DNA from: an uncultured Candidatus Peribacteria bacterium
GTDB lineage: Bacteria; Patescibacteriota; Gracilibacteria; BD1-5; JAGOOR01
NCBI GenBank assembly: GCA_964521495.1
Contig: CAZFTF010000004.1
Location: 15,889-79,888 of the forward strand
Length of the DNA: 64,000 nt
Reading direction: 5' to 3'
In this document: positions 14,934-23,252 of the stretch, in pieces
Layout: each line of letters starts with the position of its first letter
Numbering within the stretch: the stretch's first letter is position 1
Notes under the pieces: model-generated
Database searches by the model: none
The model's input: the letters and a program-made list of their open reading frames with translations, nothing else
Told to the model about the DNA's origin: nothing
Position numbers and translations under genes: made by a program

Positions 14934-15701
14934 ATGTCTCTTAATAATGGTACATTTGATGAAAGTATGATGACTCCAGAGTCCTTTCCGTATCATCTTT
15001 TGCCCCAAACACCAAAACAAATAAATATCAAGCCTTGATTTAAGCCCAGAGTACCAGTTCGGCCTCGTGGTTTCTATGGGGTAAATATTTGAGAGCTAGG
15101 AAGAAAGCCAATTCCAGAAGTTTTGACAATGATCCAAGAAGCCTCTCCGGGGTCTATCGGTCTTGAAGATGCAAAAAAAATAACAGCAATCCGATTAGCG
15201 GCATTGCTAAATTCTACATTATCCCCAAAAACTACCAGAAGTGTTTCAGAAACTATTACCAGAGTACATCAACATTTACAAGATATATTGCTTTGTCGCC
15301 CCTTTCTCATACCAGTCGTGCTGACACGAGCCCATGATTTTATTACCACGATAAGTTCTGCATTTCGGGCCTCCTCTTTGGAATCAATAAAGGGGATACA
15401 AAACATATTACAACAGCAACAAGCAATACATACAGTAGTATCTCGACACGGACACCATGCCATCGCACCAATGCCAAATATGAGGGATTCGGCTCGACAG
15501 GCGCTCCAGAAAGCTTTGGCGGACGAAAGAGAGGAGTATCCAGCTATTGGAAGTGTTGTAGATATTCTCTCAAAATCAGATATGGCTGCCGAAAACATGC
15601 GATTACATATACTGTATCTCTATTTAGCACTTACAAAAAAAGATACTATTCCCACAGTTTCACGAGGCTCATCCCAACCACGCCTACCACAAAGAGTATA
15701 A
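14934..15701 (+). CDS. Hypothetical protein
   Basis: Track ORF 15123..15701 extends upstream through two TGA to ATG 14934. No family was recognised. The 3-prime end overlaps the ZIP gene. Confidence 0.45.
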
Positions 15702-16392
15702 CAGTGATATACTTCATCTTTTTTGATGATTGGGCATGTATCATGGGGAGGAATTCTACATTGGAGACATAGAGCAGTGAACCGCCGGCAAAGGCAGTGA
15801 GGAGACTGACAACGAAAATATTTTGAGACGGGACAAGTATGCTTGAGAGGAGATATCAGAGGGGAGCTGCAAGAGCAAATGCGAGCACGAGAAGAATCTG
15901 TTTTTTACGCTGAAAATGTGATTGTCTCAAAAGAGACACCAGAGAAAGCGAGACGGGGATTTGGTGGACAGCAACTCATGCGAGTACAGTGATACCAAGT
16001 TCAGCGCTCATGTTCATTCCAGCCCGTATCCCGACCCCATCAAAGATAGTGTGGAGGAAGATGGCAATCCAAGAAACGATAATTACATGGTCCAAGTGTT
16101 CATGTGGGTCTTCGTGGGTATGGTCACCATGTTTATGATCGTGGTGATGCGGTGTGAGGAGTTCTTCTATCAGATAAATAACCAAAAACCCAGCAATAAA
16201 AGTATAGATAGCAAGAGGGTTGCTCTCGATGGATTCAGGGAGGATATGGACGAGCGAGACTGAGAGCATAGTACCCCCTCAGAGCGCGACGAGGAGATGG
16301 AGAATCTTCTCTGGGATATCCTTCCAGATGTGCAGAATAAGCCCAATACTCGATATCAGAAAAAGGCCAATAAGAATGAGAATTGGAGACAT
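15646..16392 (-). CDS. ZIP family metal (Zn/Fe) transporter
   Basis: ATG 16390-16392 to TAG 15646-15648; track ORF 15976..16269 is the middle part. It has a His-rich loop (HHHDHKHGDHTHEDPHEH) and ZIP motifs HTIFDGVGIRAG and AVHQIPVSLSL. Confidence 0.8.
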
Positions 16393-16400
16393 AAAAAAAG

Positions 16401-17537
16401 TTAAAAACAAAGTTTTTTAAGTTCTTTCTCAAAATGTTTGAGGCCAAAATCTTGGGCTCTTTTTTGACAATTGTGGCTTAGATCTCAGAGTGTTTGAATT
16501 TTTTTCACAGCATCTGCGATATCGCTTGGTTTGCAATCTGGATTAATGAGGATACCTGTTTTTCCGTCCAGAATTGTTTCTTTGAGCCCACCATCATTGA
16601 CCCCAATAACGGGTGTTCCACATGACATCGATTCTACTGGACTCATACCAAAATCCTCATCCACTGGAACATAAATAGTTGCCGTAGCTTCCTGTATGAG
16701 CTGTCGTAATTCCCCGTCATCTGGCGAACAAATCGCTCTGATATTTGGGTATCCCCCAATCATAGCAAATATTTTCTCTTTTTCTGGATCATTCCTTCCA
16801 TACGTGAGAATGAGATTTTCTTCGGGCATTTTCTGAAAGGCAGACACGATTCTATCAACGCGCTTGATGGATGATAGTCGAGCAAATGAGAGGAAATATC
16901 ATTTTTTCTCTGTATTTTTGGCGGGTTTAAAAAAGTCAGTATTAACAGGAGGGTAGAGGATAGCTGCATCACGTTTTGTAAAAGTCTTGATGCGTTTTTG
17001 GGTATTTTTGGAATTTGTGAGGAGGATCTTTATTTTTCTCAAATCTTTGAGATATTCTCGACGAAATTTACTGGTCATATATTGGTAGACCAAGAGCATA
17101 CTTTTTGGTACTTTTTTCTCATACGCTTCTCTCTGGTCAAAGAGATAGCGAGGAATGGTGTGGCAATAGTAGACAATCTTTTTTCGTTTAAAATTTTTGA
17201 CAGCCGAGAGGCAATCACCACTCATAATGATCATATCGTACTCTTTTTTTAGCTTTCTGGTTTTCATCGAGAAAGCCCATTTGAGACCAAAATGTCGGAG
17301 ACCATTTTTGCAGATAAAAGCCATCTTGGAAGGCATCCAAGGGAAATCATAGAGAAACCATTGAGGCATCAGTGGAATCATCTTTCCTTCAAAACCTTGT
17401 TCTCGGAGATTGTAGCTTCCCGGACTAAAAAATCCTGAGGCGATATCTGCCTTCAGTGCATTTGCTATCATCAGAATAAGTCTCTCCCCACCACCACGAT
17501 ACAAAAAAGTGTCATGAAGTACAAGAATTTTTAGCAT
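16401..17537 (-). CDS. Glycosyltransferase (GT-B fold, family 4-like)
   Basis: Track ORFs 16485..16847 and 16899..17537 share one frame, joined by TGA, with a tail running to TAA 16401-16403. The C-terminal motif EDFGMSPVESMSCGTPVIGVNDGGLKETI is the GT1/GT4 E-x7-E region. Confidence 0.75.
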
Positions 17538-17663: not shown

Positions 17664-18083
17664 ATGCAATACAAGATTCCTATTCAGGTAGAAAATGAAG
17701 ATACAATTATTCTCGGTCTCAGCTTGAGACAAATGGGTATTATTATTGTGTGACTTATACTCGCTTTTGGCTTCTTCAATAAGTTTCAATCCACACTTCC
17801 CAAAACTCCTCTTATCATTGTTTGTGTGCTTATTGTTGGAATATTCTTTATCGTTGCCAAGTTTCGCACTCACGATATGACATTTTTGCCTTTTATCCTT
17901 AATTTGGTTCGTTATAAAATCAATGGTAATGGTGCAAAAGGCGAAGGAAGGCTATGGACTCGATGAGTAGATAGCTATTCCCCAATTGAAATTGGCTATG
18001 TGCAACCCGACTATGCTACGAGTAAGGGGAAAAAACGTACAAAAGATACCTCAAAAGTTGCAGAAAATATAAAAACACTGTAA
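17664..18083 (+). CDS. PrgI family (VirB3-like) small membrane protein
   Basis: ATG 17664 to TAA 18081-18083, 2 in-frame TGA. MQYKIPIQVENEDTIILGLSLRQMGIIIVGLILAFGFF followed by a second TM fits the PrgI/VirB3-type pattern found next to VirB4 genes. Confidence 0.6.
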
Positions 18084-18092
18084 AATAATTCT

Positions 18093-18917
18093 ATGAAAAA
18101 TCCTCTCGACCTTCTTTTTCAATCAAATAAATCTTCAAAAACTTCTGTTTCTGAGACTATTTCTAAGAAAGATGAAGTGATTCAGCCAGGGAAAGATACG
18201 ACAGCTACTTCTGTGAAGCCAAAAAAGACAAATCATCCCGATGATTCGACTCAGCGCTACCTCCCATTTTCAGAGGTACGAGATAATATCGTGATAATGA
18301 AGGATGGCTCTGCGCGTATTGTTCTCCGTGTCGAAGCCGTGAACTTTGCGCTCAAGAGTGAGCCAGAACAGGATGCGATCATTTATTCTTTTCAGCATTT
18401 TCTCAATTCACTTCAGTTTCCTGTTCAGATTCTCGTTCGTTCACTCAAGGTTGATATCGAAGGATATCTTACTCGACTTAAAAATCTCACTTCTGGTCAA
18501 CAAAATAAACTCCTCAAAGAGCAATCCGAGCGATATATAGAGTTTCTCACCAACCTCGTCAATGTGGCACAGATTATGAAAAAAGAGTTTTATATCATTA
18601 TCCCTCACGATGAGGTCGATAATCAGAGTGTTTCTCCAAAAGGAATGTTCCAAGTGGTAAAGAGCTTCTTCGCAGGCGTTAGTCAGACAGTGACGTATGA
18701 GCAAATACGTCATAATATGGCACGTATTGATTACATGAAGAAGAAATGTCAGGAAAAAGCGAACATGATTCAATCCAGTCTCCAGTTTGTCGGCCTTCAA
18801 TCAAAAGTTCTCGACAAGGATCAGCTTATCGAACTCATGATTAGTTACTACGATCCAAAAGTAAATTCTGTTGCCAAGGTTCTCGATAATAATGTTCACT
18901 ACGATTTAGTAGGGTAA
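18093..18917 (+). CDS. VirB4/TraC N-terminal-domain-like protein lacking the ATPase domain
   Basis: Intact 274-aa ORF with no TGA, ending in TAA. TQRYLPFSEVRDNIVIMKDGSARIVLRVEAVNFALKSEPEQDAIIYSFQHFLNSLQFPVQILVRS resembles the N-terminal region of Gram-positive VirB4 (PrgJ/Orf16-type). No Walker A motif is present. Confidence 0.5.
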   Translation: MKNPLDLLFQSNKSSKTSVSETISKKDEVIQPGKDTTATSVKPKKTNHPDDSTQRYLPFSEVRDNIVIMKDGSARIVLRVEAVNFALKSEPEQDAIIYSFQHFLNSLQFPVQILVRSLKVDIEGYLTRLKNLTSGQQNKLLKEQSERYIEFLTNLVNVAQIMKKEFYIIIPHDEVDNQSVSPKGMFQVVKSFFAGVSQTVTYEQIRHNMARIDYMKKKCQEKANMIQSSLQFVGLQSKVLDKDQLIELMISYYDPKVNSVAKVLDNNVHYDLVG

Positions 18918-18920
18918 AAC

Positions 18921-20654
18921 TTAGTATATTAACTTCCTATAGCATTCCTCACAAACAACCCTCTCAGGTCTGTCTGGAGAATAAGTTGTAATAATTTCTT
19001 TCTGGCATTCTGCGCAAGTCCTCTCATAGAGTTTTCTCGGATTTCGCAAATCCATCCTCTCCTTATGTCTATGATCCGGATGTTTCGTAGGAATAGGGAT
19101 TCCGTTTTCAATATAGAAGACCAGTTCTTGTTTGATGATTTTGAATGGTTTTTTTGTTATCTCACATTGGATGATTCATCATAAAACCTCGTTGATATTT
19201 TCTGTGGCGGTTTCGTAACCAACAATTCTTTCGTCATATTGAGAGATGGATAGAGGAACATAGTGACTTCCAATATATGTATTCTTATTTTCCCCATCAT
19301 ACCATTTCCATCACTGTGCTTTTACTTCTTTCTCGGTCATAGGGAAATATTCATTCGCCACTGTTTCATTGTATGCAAAGGGGCTTAGGTCATGTGAGAA
19401 AAATTCTCACCACTCACCTGTACTCCGCATATGATCAATAATCTTTCAGCAAAGTGTTTCATAATCTTTGACAGAGTATGGAGTGTTGAGAATAGTGTGA
19501 AATCATTTTTTGAGAGAAGCACATCCAAAGCAGTTTTGCAGACCATGACAATCCATAGAATAGAAAACATCTGCTATATTATTGGCACAACTGAAAGAGA
19601 AACAAACATTATGTGCCGCTCATCCTACGAGTTGGTTTTCATAACAAAACTCCGCAGGGAGTCACCATCCATAGTTGTCATAGCAATTTTGAGCCTTGTG
19701 AAACCAGGTATTGTATTTACTGTTTTCTAGATAAGTGCAATCAAAATTGTGAAATGAATTTTTGGAAAAATGCACATAGTCACCCGTAACTGATTCATTA
19801 CCGAGTCATTTCATAAATTTCTTTGGCATTTTTTGGCAGAGATTTCGATACAGTGCGAGTGCCTGTTCTTTTTTTATTTCATCGGTCATAATATCGCGAT
19901 ACTGCTCACGAGAAAATTGATTATTCAAAACACAATACTGTTTATTCACGAGCCCAGAACAACAAAAACAATCCTTACAACTTTGGCAGTCCTGGGAGTG
20001 TTGGATATCATGGCAATCAACGCACGATTCACAAAAGTATGTCTGAAAGCAGTTTTTGCAATCCACACAACTATAACAATTTTCGAGATCAAAAACGAAG
20101 CAGGAGTCCATGACTCACTTACTTCGCTGCATATAGGTATCATAATAACAATCTTCGTTATCGTTACATGCTGCTATGAGATAGCAGTTTTTGTTATTGG
20201 CGGAGAGATGGGAATATTCTGAATTTTCATTTTTGGACTGATGGTAGAGATTCATTTTCGGAGCTTCGGTATATAAGGCTTTAAATTGATCAAAAAATGG
20301 TCTCTCAAAATCAAAGCTTCTTCCATAATCCATAGGTGACCAATCATCACCCCACCAAACCTTTTGATCATAAACAACATAAGGCTTCTCCGGAGAATAA
20401 ATCGAAATAATTTCTTGTCCTGTTTTATCACATTTTCTCTTGTAGAGCTTTCTTTCATTTCTAAAACACAGTCTTCTCTTTTGTCTCTCATTTGGGCACA
20501 GTGTCGGACTTGGAATTGCATATTTCTTTCCTCCAAATACTGGAGAAATCTTATCATAAAATTCAAGGTCTTTATCTGTTACAAAAAAATCCTGTCCGCT
20601 CAAGCGACATTTCTTTTTTTCAATGATTTTTTCTCCTGGAGGTATGAATGACAT
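18921..20654 (-). CDS. Cysteine-rich zinc-ribbon repeat protein, paralog A (577 aa)
   Basis: Track ORFs 20115..20654 and 19806..20111 plus about 300 further codons share one frame, joined only by TGA. ATG 20652-20654 to TAA 18921-18923. It has related N- and C-terminal modules (..RNERKLYKRKCDKTGQEIISIYSP.. and ..RNPRKLYERTCAECQKEIITTYSP..) and a central run of CxxC-type repeats. Confidence 0.7.
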
Positions 20655-20665
20655 AAAGATAGGGA

Positions 20666-22399
20666 TTAATAAACAAGTTTATGATAACATTTCTCACAAA
20701 CAACTTTTTCAGGTTTATCGGGAGAATAAGTGGTAAGGATGTTATCTTTACATTCAGAACAAGTGCGCTCAAAAAATTTCCTTGGATTTCTTAAATCCAT
20801 TCGTTCTTTATGTCTCTGATCTGGATGTTTCGTGGGAATAGGGATTCAGTTCTCAATATAGAATACTAATTCCTGCTTAATGATCTTGAATGGCTTCTTG
20901 GTTACCGCACATTCGATAATTCAACCCAAAACCTCATTGATATTTTTTGTAGCGGTTTCGTATCCGACTATTTTTTCATTATATTGAGCAATAGGTAGGG
21001 GAGCATAATGATTTCAGATATAGGTATTCTTGCTTTCTCCATCATACCATTTCCACCCTCTCGAAATTACTTCTGTTTCTGTCATAGGAAAGTATTCCTG
21101 AGCCACCGTTTCGTTGTACCCAAAATGTGCTATTCCATGAGGAAAGTATTCTCCCCATTCCCCCGTACTTCGCATATGGTCTATGATTTTTCCACAAAGA
21201 GTCTCATACTCTTGGGTAGAATAGGAGGTATTCATAACACAATGATGTGCCCTTTTGAGACTTGTACATCCAAAAATATTATCAGAATCCTGACATCCAT
21301 ATGCGTATATACCACCAGAACCATTCCAATAATAGAACGTAAACAGTCATCGAGTGACATCCACCGTGGAGCCAACTTCATAACAATATTCTATTCCTCC
21401 AGGAGCCGTATAGACTGCATCCATGCACTCTATTCCTTTTGGTGTAGAGTAGATATATTTAGAGTTTTCGAGTTTCTGGGAATCAAAACAAAAAAATGAA
21501 TTTTTACCATTTTCTATCTGATCACCGACACATCATTCGCAATTAATCTGTTGAGATGGTTTGACGGGGTAAGAGGATTTAAGTGTATCAAAGGACCTGA
21601 AGAGGGGGAGTCACATGGTATTTTTTGCATTTTCCAGTGTTTTCTCATAGGATTCACGGCTTACAGGTTTGTTGTAGACATGGTACTCCTTATTTTTTAA
21701 TCCAAAACAACCAATGCAGTGTGTGCAGTTTTCGCATCGCTCAATTCATAGACAATCGCGACAATTGATACTGTCTTTCGCATAGTAACATGTATAGCAT
21801 CGAGTGAGGTTGACTCATTGGTATACGTTTTCGCATTCAAAACAAAATGTTGCATCCATGACGTCACGACAGTCACGTATGAAATTATCATAATAACATG
21901 ATTCAGATTTTGTTGTTCCGACACAAAGATAGCAGTCCTTTGCAACAAGTGTGTGATTGGTATAGTCGCAATTTTCGCATTGTTTGGTAAAGAGATTAAG
22001 TCGAGGTGTTGCCTGCATGAGCTCACTAAATTGTGGGAAAAATGGTCTCTCAAAATCAAAACTTCTACCATAGTTCATCGGAGACCAATCGTCACCCCAC
22101 CACACTTTTTGGTCATATACTACATATGGTTTATCTGGAGAGTAAATTGAGATAATTTCTTTCCCTGATAAGTCACATTTTCTCTTATAGAGTTTTCTTT
22201 CATTACGAAAACACAGTCGTCTCTTTTGTCTCTCATCGGGGCAGAGTGTCGGACTGGGTATTGAATATTTTTTTCCTCAAAATATCGGAGAAATCTTATC
22301 GTAAAACTCCATATCTTTATCTGTCACAAAAAACTCTTGTCCGCTGATGCGACAGATTTTCTTTTCAGAGATGTTTTCTCAGGGGGGTATAAATGTCAT
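20666..22399 (-). CDS. Cysteine-rich zinc-ribbon repeat protein, paralog B (577 aa)
   Basis: ATG 22397-22399 to TAA 20666-20668, in frame with track ORFs 21014..21235 and 21815..22105. The termini are near-identical to paralog A (MTFIPPGENISEKK..., ...CEKCYHKLVY). It lies 11 nt upstream of paralog A. Confidence 0.7.
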
Positions 22400-22449
22400 A
22401 TAAGTAGTATAATTAAAATTGAAAATAGAAATCAGAGAAAACTATTTTC

Positions 22450-22477: not shown

Positions 22478-22502
22478 ATTTCTGTAGAAAAAATTTTACA
22501 AC

Positions 22503-23252
22503 ATGGATATTACCACCACACTCAGACAGCTCGGATTCTCAGAAAGTGAATCTCTCGTCTATCTCTCACTTCTCCAGTCAGGAGGAGATTATGTTTCAAC
22601 TCTAGCTAAAAGAACAAAACAAGGGCGAGTTGGGCTTTATTACACCCTCGATACTCTGATGCAAAAGAAATTAGTTACTGTCGCAAAACGACATGGAGCC
22701 AAGTTTTTTATTCCAGAAAAACCTGAGAGAATCGTCAATATAGAACGAGAAAAGCTTAATCTCTCGGAGATGATTCTCCCATCGCTCAAAACGCTCGTTC
22801 ATGCGGAGGCATTTCGCCCTGCCTTTACGCTTATCGATGATGAAAAGGACATCGACGAATTTCTTCATGAGCTCTCTCATTCAGAAGAAGTGCTTTCGTA
22901 TGCAAATATGAGCGTCTGGTATATGAGCAATAAGGAAAAACTTTTGAAATTTCTCGAAAGAATCCTCAAACATACCAAAAAGACTCAGCTTATCCTGCCA
23001 TACCATGAAGAGACACAGACACTCTTTCGAGATCTCGCAAAAAAATATTCTCATCTCTCACTCGTCACTATCGAGGAGGGGCAGTTTCCATTTCGCTATG
23101 ATATCTTTATTACTGAAAATGTTGTGGGACTTTTCTTCTTCGAAGATGGCGAATTTCGTGCGATTCGTATCGCGAGTCGCGAATACGCTGATTCTCAACG
23201 AGCAATATTCTATCTTGCCTGGTTGGGGGCTACGGGGTTTGTGACGAGCTAA
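22503..23252 (+). CDS. TrmB family transcriptional regulator
   Basis: Intact 249-aa ORF. The N-terminal winged-helix LRQLGFSESESLVYLSLLQSGGDYVSTLAKRTKQGRVGLYYTLDTLMQKKLV is typical of TrmB-type regulators. Confidence 0.7.
   Translation: MDITTTLRQLGFSESESLVYLSLLQSGGDYVSTLAKRTKQGRVGLYYTLDTLMQKKLVTVAKRHGAKFFIPEKPERIVNIEREKLNLSEMILPSLKTLVHAEAFRPAFTLIDDEKDIDEFLHELSHSEEVLSYANMSVWYMSNKEKLLKFLERILKHTKKTQLILPYHEETQTLFRDLAKKYSHLSLVTIEEGQFPFRYDIFITENVVGLFFFEDGEFRAIRIASREYADSQRAIFYLAWLGATGFVTS

Follow-up and report, generated by a model that had tools for sequence, protein, structure and literature searches.

A tandem gene pair read with TGA as glycine

The window analyzed here is a 64,000-nucleotide stretch of contig CAZFTF010000004.1 (assembly GCA_964521495.1, positions 15,889 to 79,888 of the forward strand) from an uncultured Candidatus Peribacteria bacterium, an ultra-small bacterium that reads TGA as glycine and whose own genome amounts to 1.04 Mb. 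Two genes at positions 18921-22399 of the window encode the cysteine-rich proteins P0001 and P0002, members of a very large, undescribed family that has its own regulator, a putative operator and a VirD4-like motor ATPase. We translated the pair with NCBI table 25 (TGA=Gly). In this code, the coordinates, lengths and spacer given in a preliminary description of the locus, namely two head-to-tail minus-strand genes for proteins of 577 aa, are exact.

18921..20654, minus strand: gene 1 (P0001), 577 aa, 10 in-frame TGA codons read as Gly; downstream member of the pair
20655..20665, minus strand: intergenic spacer of 11 nt between genes 1 and 2
20666..22399, minus strand: gene 2 (P0002), 577 aa, 10 in-frame TGA codons read as Gly; upstream (first) member of the pair

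Reading 18921-22399 with table 11 was rejected, as both genes then break into fragments. The neighboring gene for SHMT is also fragmented under the standard bacterial code, whereas code 25 gives one 432-aa protein with glycine at conserved positions. In P0001, TGA codon 416 aligns with a nearly invariant glycine in homologues from standard-code (code-11) genomes. The restored SHMT and this glycine column support code 25. We also rejected code 4 (TGA=Trp), since glycine suits the conserved columns. Database translations with W for G account for the 98% self-match and the W noise in our first alignment.

A collapse of the two copies into one, as from an assembly duplication, had been named as one outcome that would undo the description. 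At 59% overall amino acid identity, the copies are too divergent for this, and separate orthologues of each occur in the same tandem order in the independent assemblies L085, L009, L012 and L020. Because of this divergence and these orthologues, the pair is not an assembly artefact. The 11-nt joint holds no terminator-like or promoter-like site and is therefore consistent with co-transcription; the pair is probably co-transcribed from the gap that it shares with a divergent TrmB-like regulator.

Two homologous end modules bracket a double solenoid

Our first AlphaFold model, built from 44 database sequences of which many were mistranslated (Trp for TGA), was confident at the ends only, with a predicted local distance difference test (pLDDT) score of ~63 in the center. 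The second alignment comprised 140 genes, each translated with the code correct for its own locus, and the AF2 model rebuilt from these 140 sequences has a mean pLDDT of 93.4 and a predicted template modeling score (pTM) of 0.91. The resulting domain order is a basic Zn-ribbon module, beta-solenoid A, a helical linker, beta-solenoid B, an acidic conserved core and a second basic Zn-ribbon module. In the model, residues 10-100 form a small beta/alpha module and residues 131-245 very short strands that repeat every 12 residues (DSSP agrees). A pair of helices (249-275) then leads to more short strands (286-392), followed by a long helix with a helical region (395-495) and by the second copy of the end module (496-577).

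20355..20627, minus strand: P0001 N-terminal module (residues 10-100), basic, homologous to the C-terminal module; zinc site reduced to C16/C53
19920..20264, minus strand: P0001 beta-solenoid A (residues 131-245), 12-residue coils with a ladder of Cys and small residues
19479..19799, minus strand: P0001 beta-solenoid B (residues 286-392), internal duplicate of solenoid A
19170..19478, minus strand: P0001 conserved acidic helical core (residues 393-495), motifs GEWGEFF and SPFxYNETVA
18924..19169, minus strand: P0001 C-terminal module (residues 496-577), Arg-rich helix plus intact CxxC-x17-CxxC zinc ribbon
21665..22009, minus strand: P0002 beta-solenoid A (residues 131-245), 34% identical to its P0001 counterpart
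21224..21544, minus strand: P0002 beta-solenoid B (residues 286-392), 36% identical to its P0001 counterpart
20669..20914, minus strand: P0002 C-terminal Zn-ribbon module (residues 496-577)

Both internal duplications can be seen in profile comparisons. With hhalign, the N-terminal module proves homologous to the C-terminal one (probability 99.7%, E=6e-26; local alignment agrees) and solenoid A to solenoid B (probability 99.9%, E=8e-34), and the cross-controls were negative. Sequence conservation alone reveals a coil period of 12 residues: in solenoid A the autocorrelation of column entropy has peaks at 12 (0.56) and 24, in solenoid B at 12-13, and cysteine positions recur at 3- and 12-residue intervals. 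The end modules are basic (+3 to +5) and the solenoids and core acidic. No transmembrane (TM) segment, hydrophobic segment or signal peptide was found in P0001 or P0002, and the family consists of soluble cytoplasmic proteins.

Identity between the two copies follows this architecture. It is 84% over the first 130 residues, 78% in the core and 80% in the last 82 residues (the C-terminal module), against 34% in solenoid A, 28% in the linker and 36% in solenoid B. The contrast of similar ends with a diverged center, drawn in the preliminary description, is thus borne out.

Each protein contains 34-36 cysteines (~6%). The description had a center packed with CxxC-like repeats and quoted a Cys-rich stretch, which corresponds to residues 191-235 of P0001. 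The center is indeed Cys-rich and repetitive, but in most of the 'cysteine' columns at least 90% of homologues have either Cys or one of Ser, Thr, Ala and Gly. These columns are therefore inward-facing packing positions and not obligate metal ligands in CxxC sites. Family-wide conservation is found in the last coil of solenoid A (C223-x2-C226-x2-C229-x2-C232, 80-99%) and in solenoid B (C369/C378/C387, 76-96%), where gene 1 has Thr at 387.

Of the zinc-ribbon modules described at both ends, the C-terminal one is intact: C547/C550/C568/C571, the CxxC-x17-CxxC ribbon, are present in both proteins and are Cys in 100% of 140 homologues. The N-terminal module is homologous to it, but only in the family consensus does it carry a full treble-clef set (C16/C19/C53/C56, 83-100% Cys). 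Both window proteins have S19 and E56 instead, and so have lost two of the four ancestral zinc ligands of this module and lack the four-ligand treble clef that characterizes zf_Tbcl.

The centers follow orthology and the ends follow the genome

A maximum-likelihood tree of 36 code-25 members places gene 1 with L085_d (support 100/100) and gene 2 with L085_b, L009_1835, L020_7995 and L012_4810 (100/100); the two orthologue groups are sisters (93/88). The pair is therefore old, and each copy has its own orthologue group common to other genera.

We estimated substitution by the Nei-Gojobori method under code 25. The proportion of synonymous differences (pS) was saturated in all regions and comparisons (0.57-0.97), so that a precise dN/dS is not obtainable. 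Between orthologues, the solenoids are 84-93% identical, with a proportion of nonsynonymous differences (pN) of 0.04-0.09 and a dN/dS of ~0.03-0.06 where it can be estimated, and their conservation equals or exceeds that of the ends. Estimates of dN/dS for the center range over ~0.03-0.3. Between paralogs, the solenoids are ~33% identical. High orthologue identity together with low paralog identity indicates that the center diversified long ago and has since been kept by purifying selection in each paralog lineage. Conserved ends and a variable middle had earlier been ascribed to diversifying selection after tandem duplication, with dN/dS along the length as the proposed check. The old, separate orthologue groups and the conserved orthologue centers do not support this part of the description, and the unusually evolving part turns out to be the ends, which cluster by genome. 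A paralog-specific binding surface in the center, which the same description also suggested, is still the most plausible reading.

In the tree of the ends, paralogs of one genome or lineage stand together (C8a, C8b, C20a and C20b of the window's own genome, and likewise the paralogs of L013/L014/L017), whereas in the tree of the centers orthologues group across genomes. Approximately unbiased (AU) tests, on clades named after the trees had been seen, reject the orthologue clades for the ends (p=0.003 and 4e-5) and the genome-wise clades for the centers (p=0.012 and 3e-5). Recent gene conversion at the ends was considered and rejected: their pS (0.64-0.85) is as saturated as that of the centers, and the longest stretches of identical nucleotides measure mostly 11-38 nt and never more than 59 nt. 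The clustering of the ends by genome indicates concerted evolution, through either old conversion or protein-level co-evolution with a partner common to a genome's paralogs.

A large family expanded in small genomes

A search of 5.8 billion proteins at E<=0.001 assigned 1,665 clusters to the family. Among the 120 clusters listed, lengths are ~550-630 aa and every named one is 'hypothetical' or 'zinc-ribbon domain containing', in keeping with the earlier recognition of a recurrent hypothetical protein of CPR-like genomes. No curated model spans more than the last 37 residues of the family proteins. Our scan of genome contigs returned at least 574 encoding stretches, labelled Peribacteria, Peregrinibacteria, Gracilibacteria/Altimarinota, WS2 and Bdellovibrionota, plus one short contig labelled Bacteroidetes. 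Of 301 evenly sampled Patescibacteria genomes, ~15 have full-length members, almost all of them in several copies; most of these genomes belong to the window's own class or to one other family-level group.

The window's own 1.04-Mb genome has eight full-length copies: the window pair, three in tandem plus one on contig C8, and a tandem pair on C20. Three family fragments lie exactly at contig ends (C1:4-573, C1:175723-176295 and C5:69585-70778), which makes the family itself a cause of the assembly breaks; the true copy number is probably at least 10. The second gene of the C20 tandem pair (C20:6495-8227) has a TAA or frameshift near the C-terminal ribbon, so that its match splits into 1-556 and 542-577, and it is possibly a pseudogene or a sequencing error. 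Elsewhere, in Gracilibacteria, Peribacteria and Peregrinibacteria, co-directional arrays reach nine or more genes, with as many as nine copies within 17 kb, and take up to ~4% of 1.3-Mb genomes. In genomes that are complete or nearly so, the counts are:

Peregrinibacteria CP064978.1: ~13-17 copies or pseudogenes, nearly all in 998-1027 kb
Peribacteria CP060226.1 (code 25): three arrays with ~28 copies, ~58 kb in total, ~4% of the genome
Bdellovibrionota genome (5.1 Mb): ~22 full-length copies, dispersed

The arrays of CP060226.1 (G302) lie at 296-303, 501-518 and 672-706 kb. Many of its copies match the family profile in two pieces (~7-442 and ~482-579), which implies a lineage-specific insertion or replacement inside the conserved core.

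Genomes of ~1 Mb that lack most biosynthesis still give 1.5-4% of their DNA to this family. Given this expenditure and the retention of paralog centers across genera, the family must matter to episymbiotic life.

A divergent TrmB-like regulator and an operator-like palindrome

Upstream of gene 2, and divergent from it, lies a gene for a putative regulator with a palindrome in the gap between them.

22503-23252, plus strand: winged-helix regulator of the TrmB family, 249 aa; PF01978 score 33.4 bits (cut-off 25.6)
22483-22500, no strand: operator-like 18-bp palindrome TGTAGAAaaaaTTTTACA, 1 mismatch to TGTAGAA-N4-TTCTACA

Homologues of the regulator reach 47 bits on PF01978. The NCBIfam model TrmBL1 aligns with residues 3-159, at a score far below its cut-off. 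We clustered the neighbors of the family at 76 related loci, in which open reading frames (ORFs) were called naively; the loci are phylogenetically related, so all counts from this set overstate independence. A TrmB-like protein of ~251 aa is present at 40 of the 76 loci, and in 31 cases it lies directly upstream of the first array gene and divergent from it. This arrangement includes a Bdellovibrionales locus (L033), and contig C5 of the window's own genome has a second locus of the same kind. That genome holds five TrmB-like paralogs, of which only some adjoin family genes. A link between the regulator and the zinc module alone was rejected, because the regulator adjoins none of 20 stand-alone Patescibacteria mini-proteins that consist of this module. 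At one Bdellovibrionota locus (L108, G305:C1:2475548-2485811), a C-module mini-protein of ~85 aa stands divergent beside a short TrmB-like ORF, which mirrors the full-length arrangement.

The window palindrome ends 2 nt short of the start codon of the TrmB-like gene and stands 84 nt upstream of gene 2; a promoter-like site of the regulator, TTGATA-16-TATACT, closely precedes it. With at most 1 mismatch allowed, it is the only match in the 1.04-Mb genome, whose other arrays have none. Across 1.03 Mb of loci there are 24 such matches, each in a different locus, where <1 is expected by chance, and 17 of the 24 fall exactly in the gap between the TrmB-like gene and the family gene. The palindrome is usually 3-24 bp away from the regulator start and 60-147 bp away from the first array gene, which lies downstream of it. 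An AT-rich palindrome at ~22434-22448, AGAAAActaTTTTCT, was dropped as probably due to chance.

A VirD4-like ATPase at the array ends

At 13-14 of the 76 loci, the array is directly followed by a same-strand gene for an ATPase of ~746 aa, usually <100 bp away, and these loci come from both code-11 and code-25 lineages. The ATPase has an FtsK/HerA-type P-loop domain and in Pfam matches T4SS-DNA_transf (PF02534, 42.2 vs 20.1 bits), TrwB_AAD_bind (PF10412, 33.1 vs 20.5) and also TraG-D_C; in NCBIfam it matches VirD4-like (CD1115 family), TraD and CedD models, all below the equivalog cut-offs. Four complete or near-complete genomes have a full-length orthologue in or beside the array, with other type IV coupling protein (T4CP) paralogs elsewhere. 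By genome, the orthologue lies in or beside arrays in G244, G287, G199 and G142 (within ~160 bp) and in G165 and G082 (1-2.5 kb), as well as in G073 and G119 of another group. In the window's own genome it is found at C1:173359-175611, directly before the family fragment at the contig end. The Bdellovibrionota genome with ~22 copies has exactly one orthologue (53% identity), along with TrmB-like genes.

The N-terminal domain of the ATPase was rejected as a marker of the family: it is present in 286 of the 301 sampled genomes of the phylum, and only the orthologue group is array-linked. This region, the N-terminal ~300 aa of the Patescibacteria VirD4-like ATPases (L026:11390-12289 and homologues; C1:173359-174270), appears to be an internally duplicated soluble domain. 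In many genomes its halves match separately, at residues ~38-149 and ~185-299, and the domain takes the place of the usual TM anchor. The window's own genome lists four VirD4-like ATPase paralogs (including the regions C7:38477-40072, C8:21971-24427 and C5:59645-62587), and only some of these adjoin family genes.

A 2025 survey describes the background against which such an ATPase can be viewed (PMC12102498). A Patescibacteria genome has about two VirD4-type T4CPs, most of them orphan and few encoded close to virB4; relaxases are mostly absent and the T4CP substrates unknown; and exaptation of the T4CP to other roles is considered possible. The Gracilibacteria genes for PrgI and TrsD stand apart from virB4 (PMC12102498). 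Two genes convergent with the window pair belong to this type IV secretion system (T4SS) class, and each is the only copy in its genome.

17664-18083, plus strand: PrgI (VirB3-like), convergent neighbor
18093-18917, plus strand: TrsD/TraC-like protein with a VirB4 N-terminal domain, 274 aa, convergent neighbor

The second protein matches TraC-like, VirB4_plasma-N and TrsD models and fits a TrsD-type T4SS component, a separate protein widespread in Patescibacteria (PMC12102498). Only close relatives have this PrgI/TrsD neighborhood of the pair in common with the window. Further along, locus L085 (7838-10143, against 15646-17537 in the window) has a 116-aa FUR-family gene between a glycosyltransferase and a ZIP transporter; in the window these two genes abut and there is no FUR gene.

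A proposed role as clients or adaptors of the ATPase

We tentatively propose that the family proteins are inducible, paralog-specific recognition proteins that act as clients or adaptors with the VirD4-like ATPase, with the regulator, palindrome and shared partner arranged as follows. A dimer of the TrmB-like protein would bind TGTAGAA-N4-TTCTACA and, on a given signal, turn its own gene and the array on or off. Every paralog would use the outer face of its own double solenoid to recognize a different, evolutionarily stable target, while the conserved end modules and core would dock all paralogs onto one common, lineage-specific partner. Such a common docking partner would explain the concerted evolution of the ends within a genome. 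The best candidate for the partner is the VirD4-like (T4CP-type) ATPase, which lies at the 3' ends of arrays in many genomes and, in the window's own genome, beside another copy of the family. In this role the family proteins may be clients or specificity adaptors of a VirD4-like motor, and some may even be cargo for a T4SS-like apparatus whose PrgI/TrsD parts adjoin the pair. The cassette of regulator, operator, array and ATPase is a concrete, testable candidate for the substrate question raised by the survey of Patescibacteria T4CPs (PMC12102498).

Several observations weigh against this proposal. The ATPase is directly adjacent at only 13-14 of the 76 loci, whose phylogenetic relatedness overstates their independence; the window pair itself has no T4CP gene next to it; and in the Bdellovibrionota genome the family, ATPase and TrmB-like genes are all dispersed. 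The array-type ATPase also matches the PADLOC model mad8 (E=1e-13) and, more weakly, HerA. It has no N-terminal TM helices, which canonical VirD4 has, and its sole hydrophobic 19-mer (Kyte-Doolittle 2.0) is at residue 449, within the ATPase domain; because these helices are missing, its link to a secretion channel is uncertain. With regard to cargo, a tight solenoid fold stabilized by zinc is poorly suited to a T4SS, which requires its substrates unfolded, and the C-terminal tail has neither the positive charge of known T4SS signals nor a BID-like sequence. Finally, the concerted ends could reflect old gene conversion instead of a shared partner, and the post hoc choice of clades tempers the AU tests.

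A broader version of the proposal would make the arrays the missing clients of the orphan Patescibacteria VirD4-like ATPases: a TrmB-controlled, zinc-capped repertoire, each member for a different conserved target in host or prey, delivered or sorted by a relaxase-less T4SS-like apparatus, with the whole system shared horizontally with a Bdellovibrionota lineage. Taken as a whole, we regard this as rather unlikely.

Alternative explanations

An unlikely alternative is that these are nucleic-acid-binding zinc-finger proteins, either regulators of transcription or RNA or mimics of DNA, in which each solenoid or finger set would recognize a different sequence or enzyme; the adjacent ATPase would then be incidental or would handle DNA in uptake or translocation as an FtsK/CedD-like motor. 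The basic, Arg-rich end modules with their treble-clef and CxxC-x17-CxxC fingers fit this idea, acidic solenoids are also a feature of DNA-mimic repeat proteins, and the ATPase resembles the DNA translocases TraD and CedD. Foldseek searches with the first model gave finger-level matches only to DNA-binding zinc fingers, all of them non-significant. However, Pfam, NCBIfam and PDB sequence profile searches returned no significant match to any DNA- or RNA-binding family (in the PDB profile search a LIM-type finger came closest, with E=0.13, and the antifreeze beta-helix of Tenebrio reached E=2.5), and the N-module zinc site is lost in the window copies. The stand-alone homologues of the finger module are uncharacterized and lend no support either way. 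We also leave a smallish chance that the explanation is something other than those considered here.

Ongoing diversifying selection on the central binding surface of tandem duplicates, an arms race against phage or host variation for example, seems improbable. It would account for the fact that P0001 and P0002 differ chiefly in the center, and copy number does vary among close relatives, from two in the window to at least four in the syntenic relative L085. The gene 2 lineage also evolves faster, its solenoids being 47-63% identical to those of L085_b. Against this stand the stability of the orthologue groups across genera, the low pN and high identity of orthologue centers at saturated pS, a center tree that follows orthology, and the lack of PADLOC matches.

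We give equally little weight to an anti-phage or anti-mobile-element defense module, in which arrays of sensors would work with a HerA/mad8-like ATPase under a winged helix-turn-helix (wHTH) regulator. The mad8 and weaker HerA matches of the ATPase point that way, and variable multi-copy arrays with a wHTH regulator are common in defense loci. A single phage family in PHROGs, phrog_15341, whose annotation gives no function, shares the solenoid repeat (E=5e-8 for P0002). That match covers window positions 19806-20111 and residues 138-238 of P0002, and similar Cys-laddered coils are thus present in phage proteins. Nevertheless, PADLOC searches gave no match for P0001 or P0002 and none of meaning for the family or the regulator, no nuclease or other effector domain was seen, and the arrays, in contrast to typical defense islands, keep their sequence and synteny across genera under purifying selection.

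An enzyme of the left-handed beta-helix (LbH) acyltransferase type, or a cysteine-rich zinc/iron buffer, is very improbable: ~6% Cys, a ZIP transporter 2.5 kb away and best Foldseek matches to GlmU, LpxD and gamma-carbonic anhydrase favor it, but those matches are weak, the coil period is 12 and not 18, no Hexapep Pfam match was found in P0001, P0002 or 44 family members, most Cys columns accept Ser/Thr/Ala/Gly, and the ZIP neighbor reflects local synteny only. A clear match to a characterized enzyme family, the other outcome named as undoing the preliminary description, was not obtained in the Pfam, NCBIfam, PDB profile, PADLOC and Foldseek searches.

Comparison with known systems

Searches of PDB and BFVD found no whole-protein resemblance among solved or viral predicted structures. 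With the first, shallow model, Foldseek gave nothing in either database (none <0.03 in BFVD); with the confident model, it gave only LbH enzymes, at E>=2.7e-3, TM-score <=0.2 and a root-mean-square deviation of 11-19 Å, values that suggest a generic likeness of solenoids. NCBIfam searches of P0001 and P0002 gave no match, and literature searches on the domain names and the family description found no paper describing the family. The Cys-rich Peribacteria proteins of a 2016 report (PMC4736985) are a different set, ~1,655 aa long and secreted with signal peptides.

The closest named relatives are the mini-proteins of ~100 aa assigned to zf_Tbcl (PF13451), zf_Tbcl_2 (PF23477) and TIGR04272, which are themselves uncharacterized. 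Mini-proteins that consist of the C-module only are widespread in Patescibacteria, and one of the stand-alone proteins scores 70.7 bits on TIGR04272 (CxxC-x17-CxxC domain). They align with the C-terminal module (profile positions ~494-576) and have in common with it an F-Y...P-x-P...R-x3-R helix and the CxxC-x17-CxxC ribbon. In Pfam, the last 35 residues of P0001 and P0002 match zf_Tbcl_2 below threshold (18.9 and 14.4 bits against a cut-off of 27); of 44 family members, 33 match this model at E<=0.1 (the best at 1.3e-7) and only 3 match PF13451. Thus, zf_Tbcl_2 is a relative at the level of a domain only: the mini-proteins are single modules, whereas in P0001 and P0002 two modules bracket ~400 aa of double solenoid and core.

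Two solenoid types resemble the center in part. The beetle antifreeze protein TmAFP (PDB 1EZG) has, like P0001 and P0002, a 12-residue coil and a Cys ladder in a very narrow solenoid. It was the sole solenoid match of the PDB sequence search, at the non-significant E-value given above, and it is not among the top 50 listed Foldseek matches. TmAFP is secreted, binds ice through a TCT face and carries two disulfide-bonded Cys in each coil, whereas the family has no signal peptide, about one conserved column of Cys or small residues per coil and no TCT motif. The LbH enzymes (GlmU, LpxD, LpxA and gamma-carbonic anhydrase) have the beta-solenoid shape in common with the family and gave the best Foldseek matches, but they are built from 18-residue hexapeptide coils, and neither a Hexapep motif nor the trimer active-site residues were identified in the family. 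The 12-residue, Cys-laddered solenoid with zinc-finger caps is a compact new scaffold for protein design.

For the proposed function, two analogies can be drawn. The Bep effectors of Bartonella carry a BID domain and a positively charged tail at the C-terminus as their signal, with the variable part N-terminal. Their arrays beside virD4 resemble the family by analogy, as tandem paralogs near a VirD4-type coupling protein that combine a common module with a variable part. In the family, however, the conserved modules are at both ends, are predicted to bind zinc and are not BID-like, the array ATPase has no TM anchor, and translocation is hypothetical. Similarity in sequence or fold is absent, as are methylase and nuclease partners, and the likeness to the HsdS subunits of type I restriction-modification systems is an architectural analogy only: in HsdS, two variable recognition domains lie within conserved regions through which a common partner is contacted, and specificity variants are numerous.

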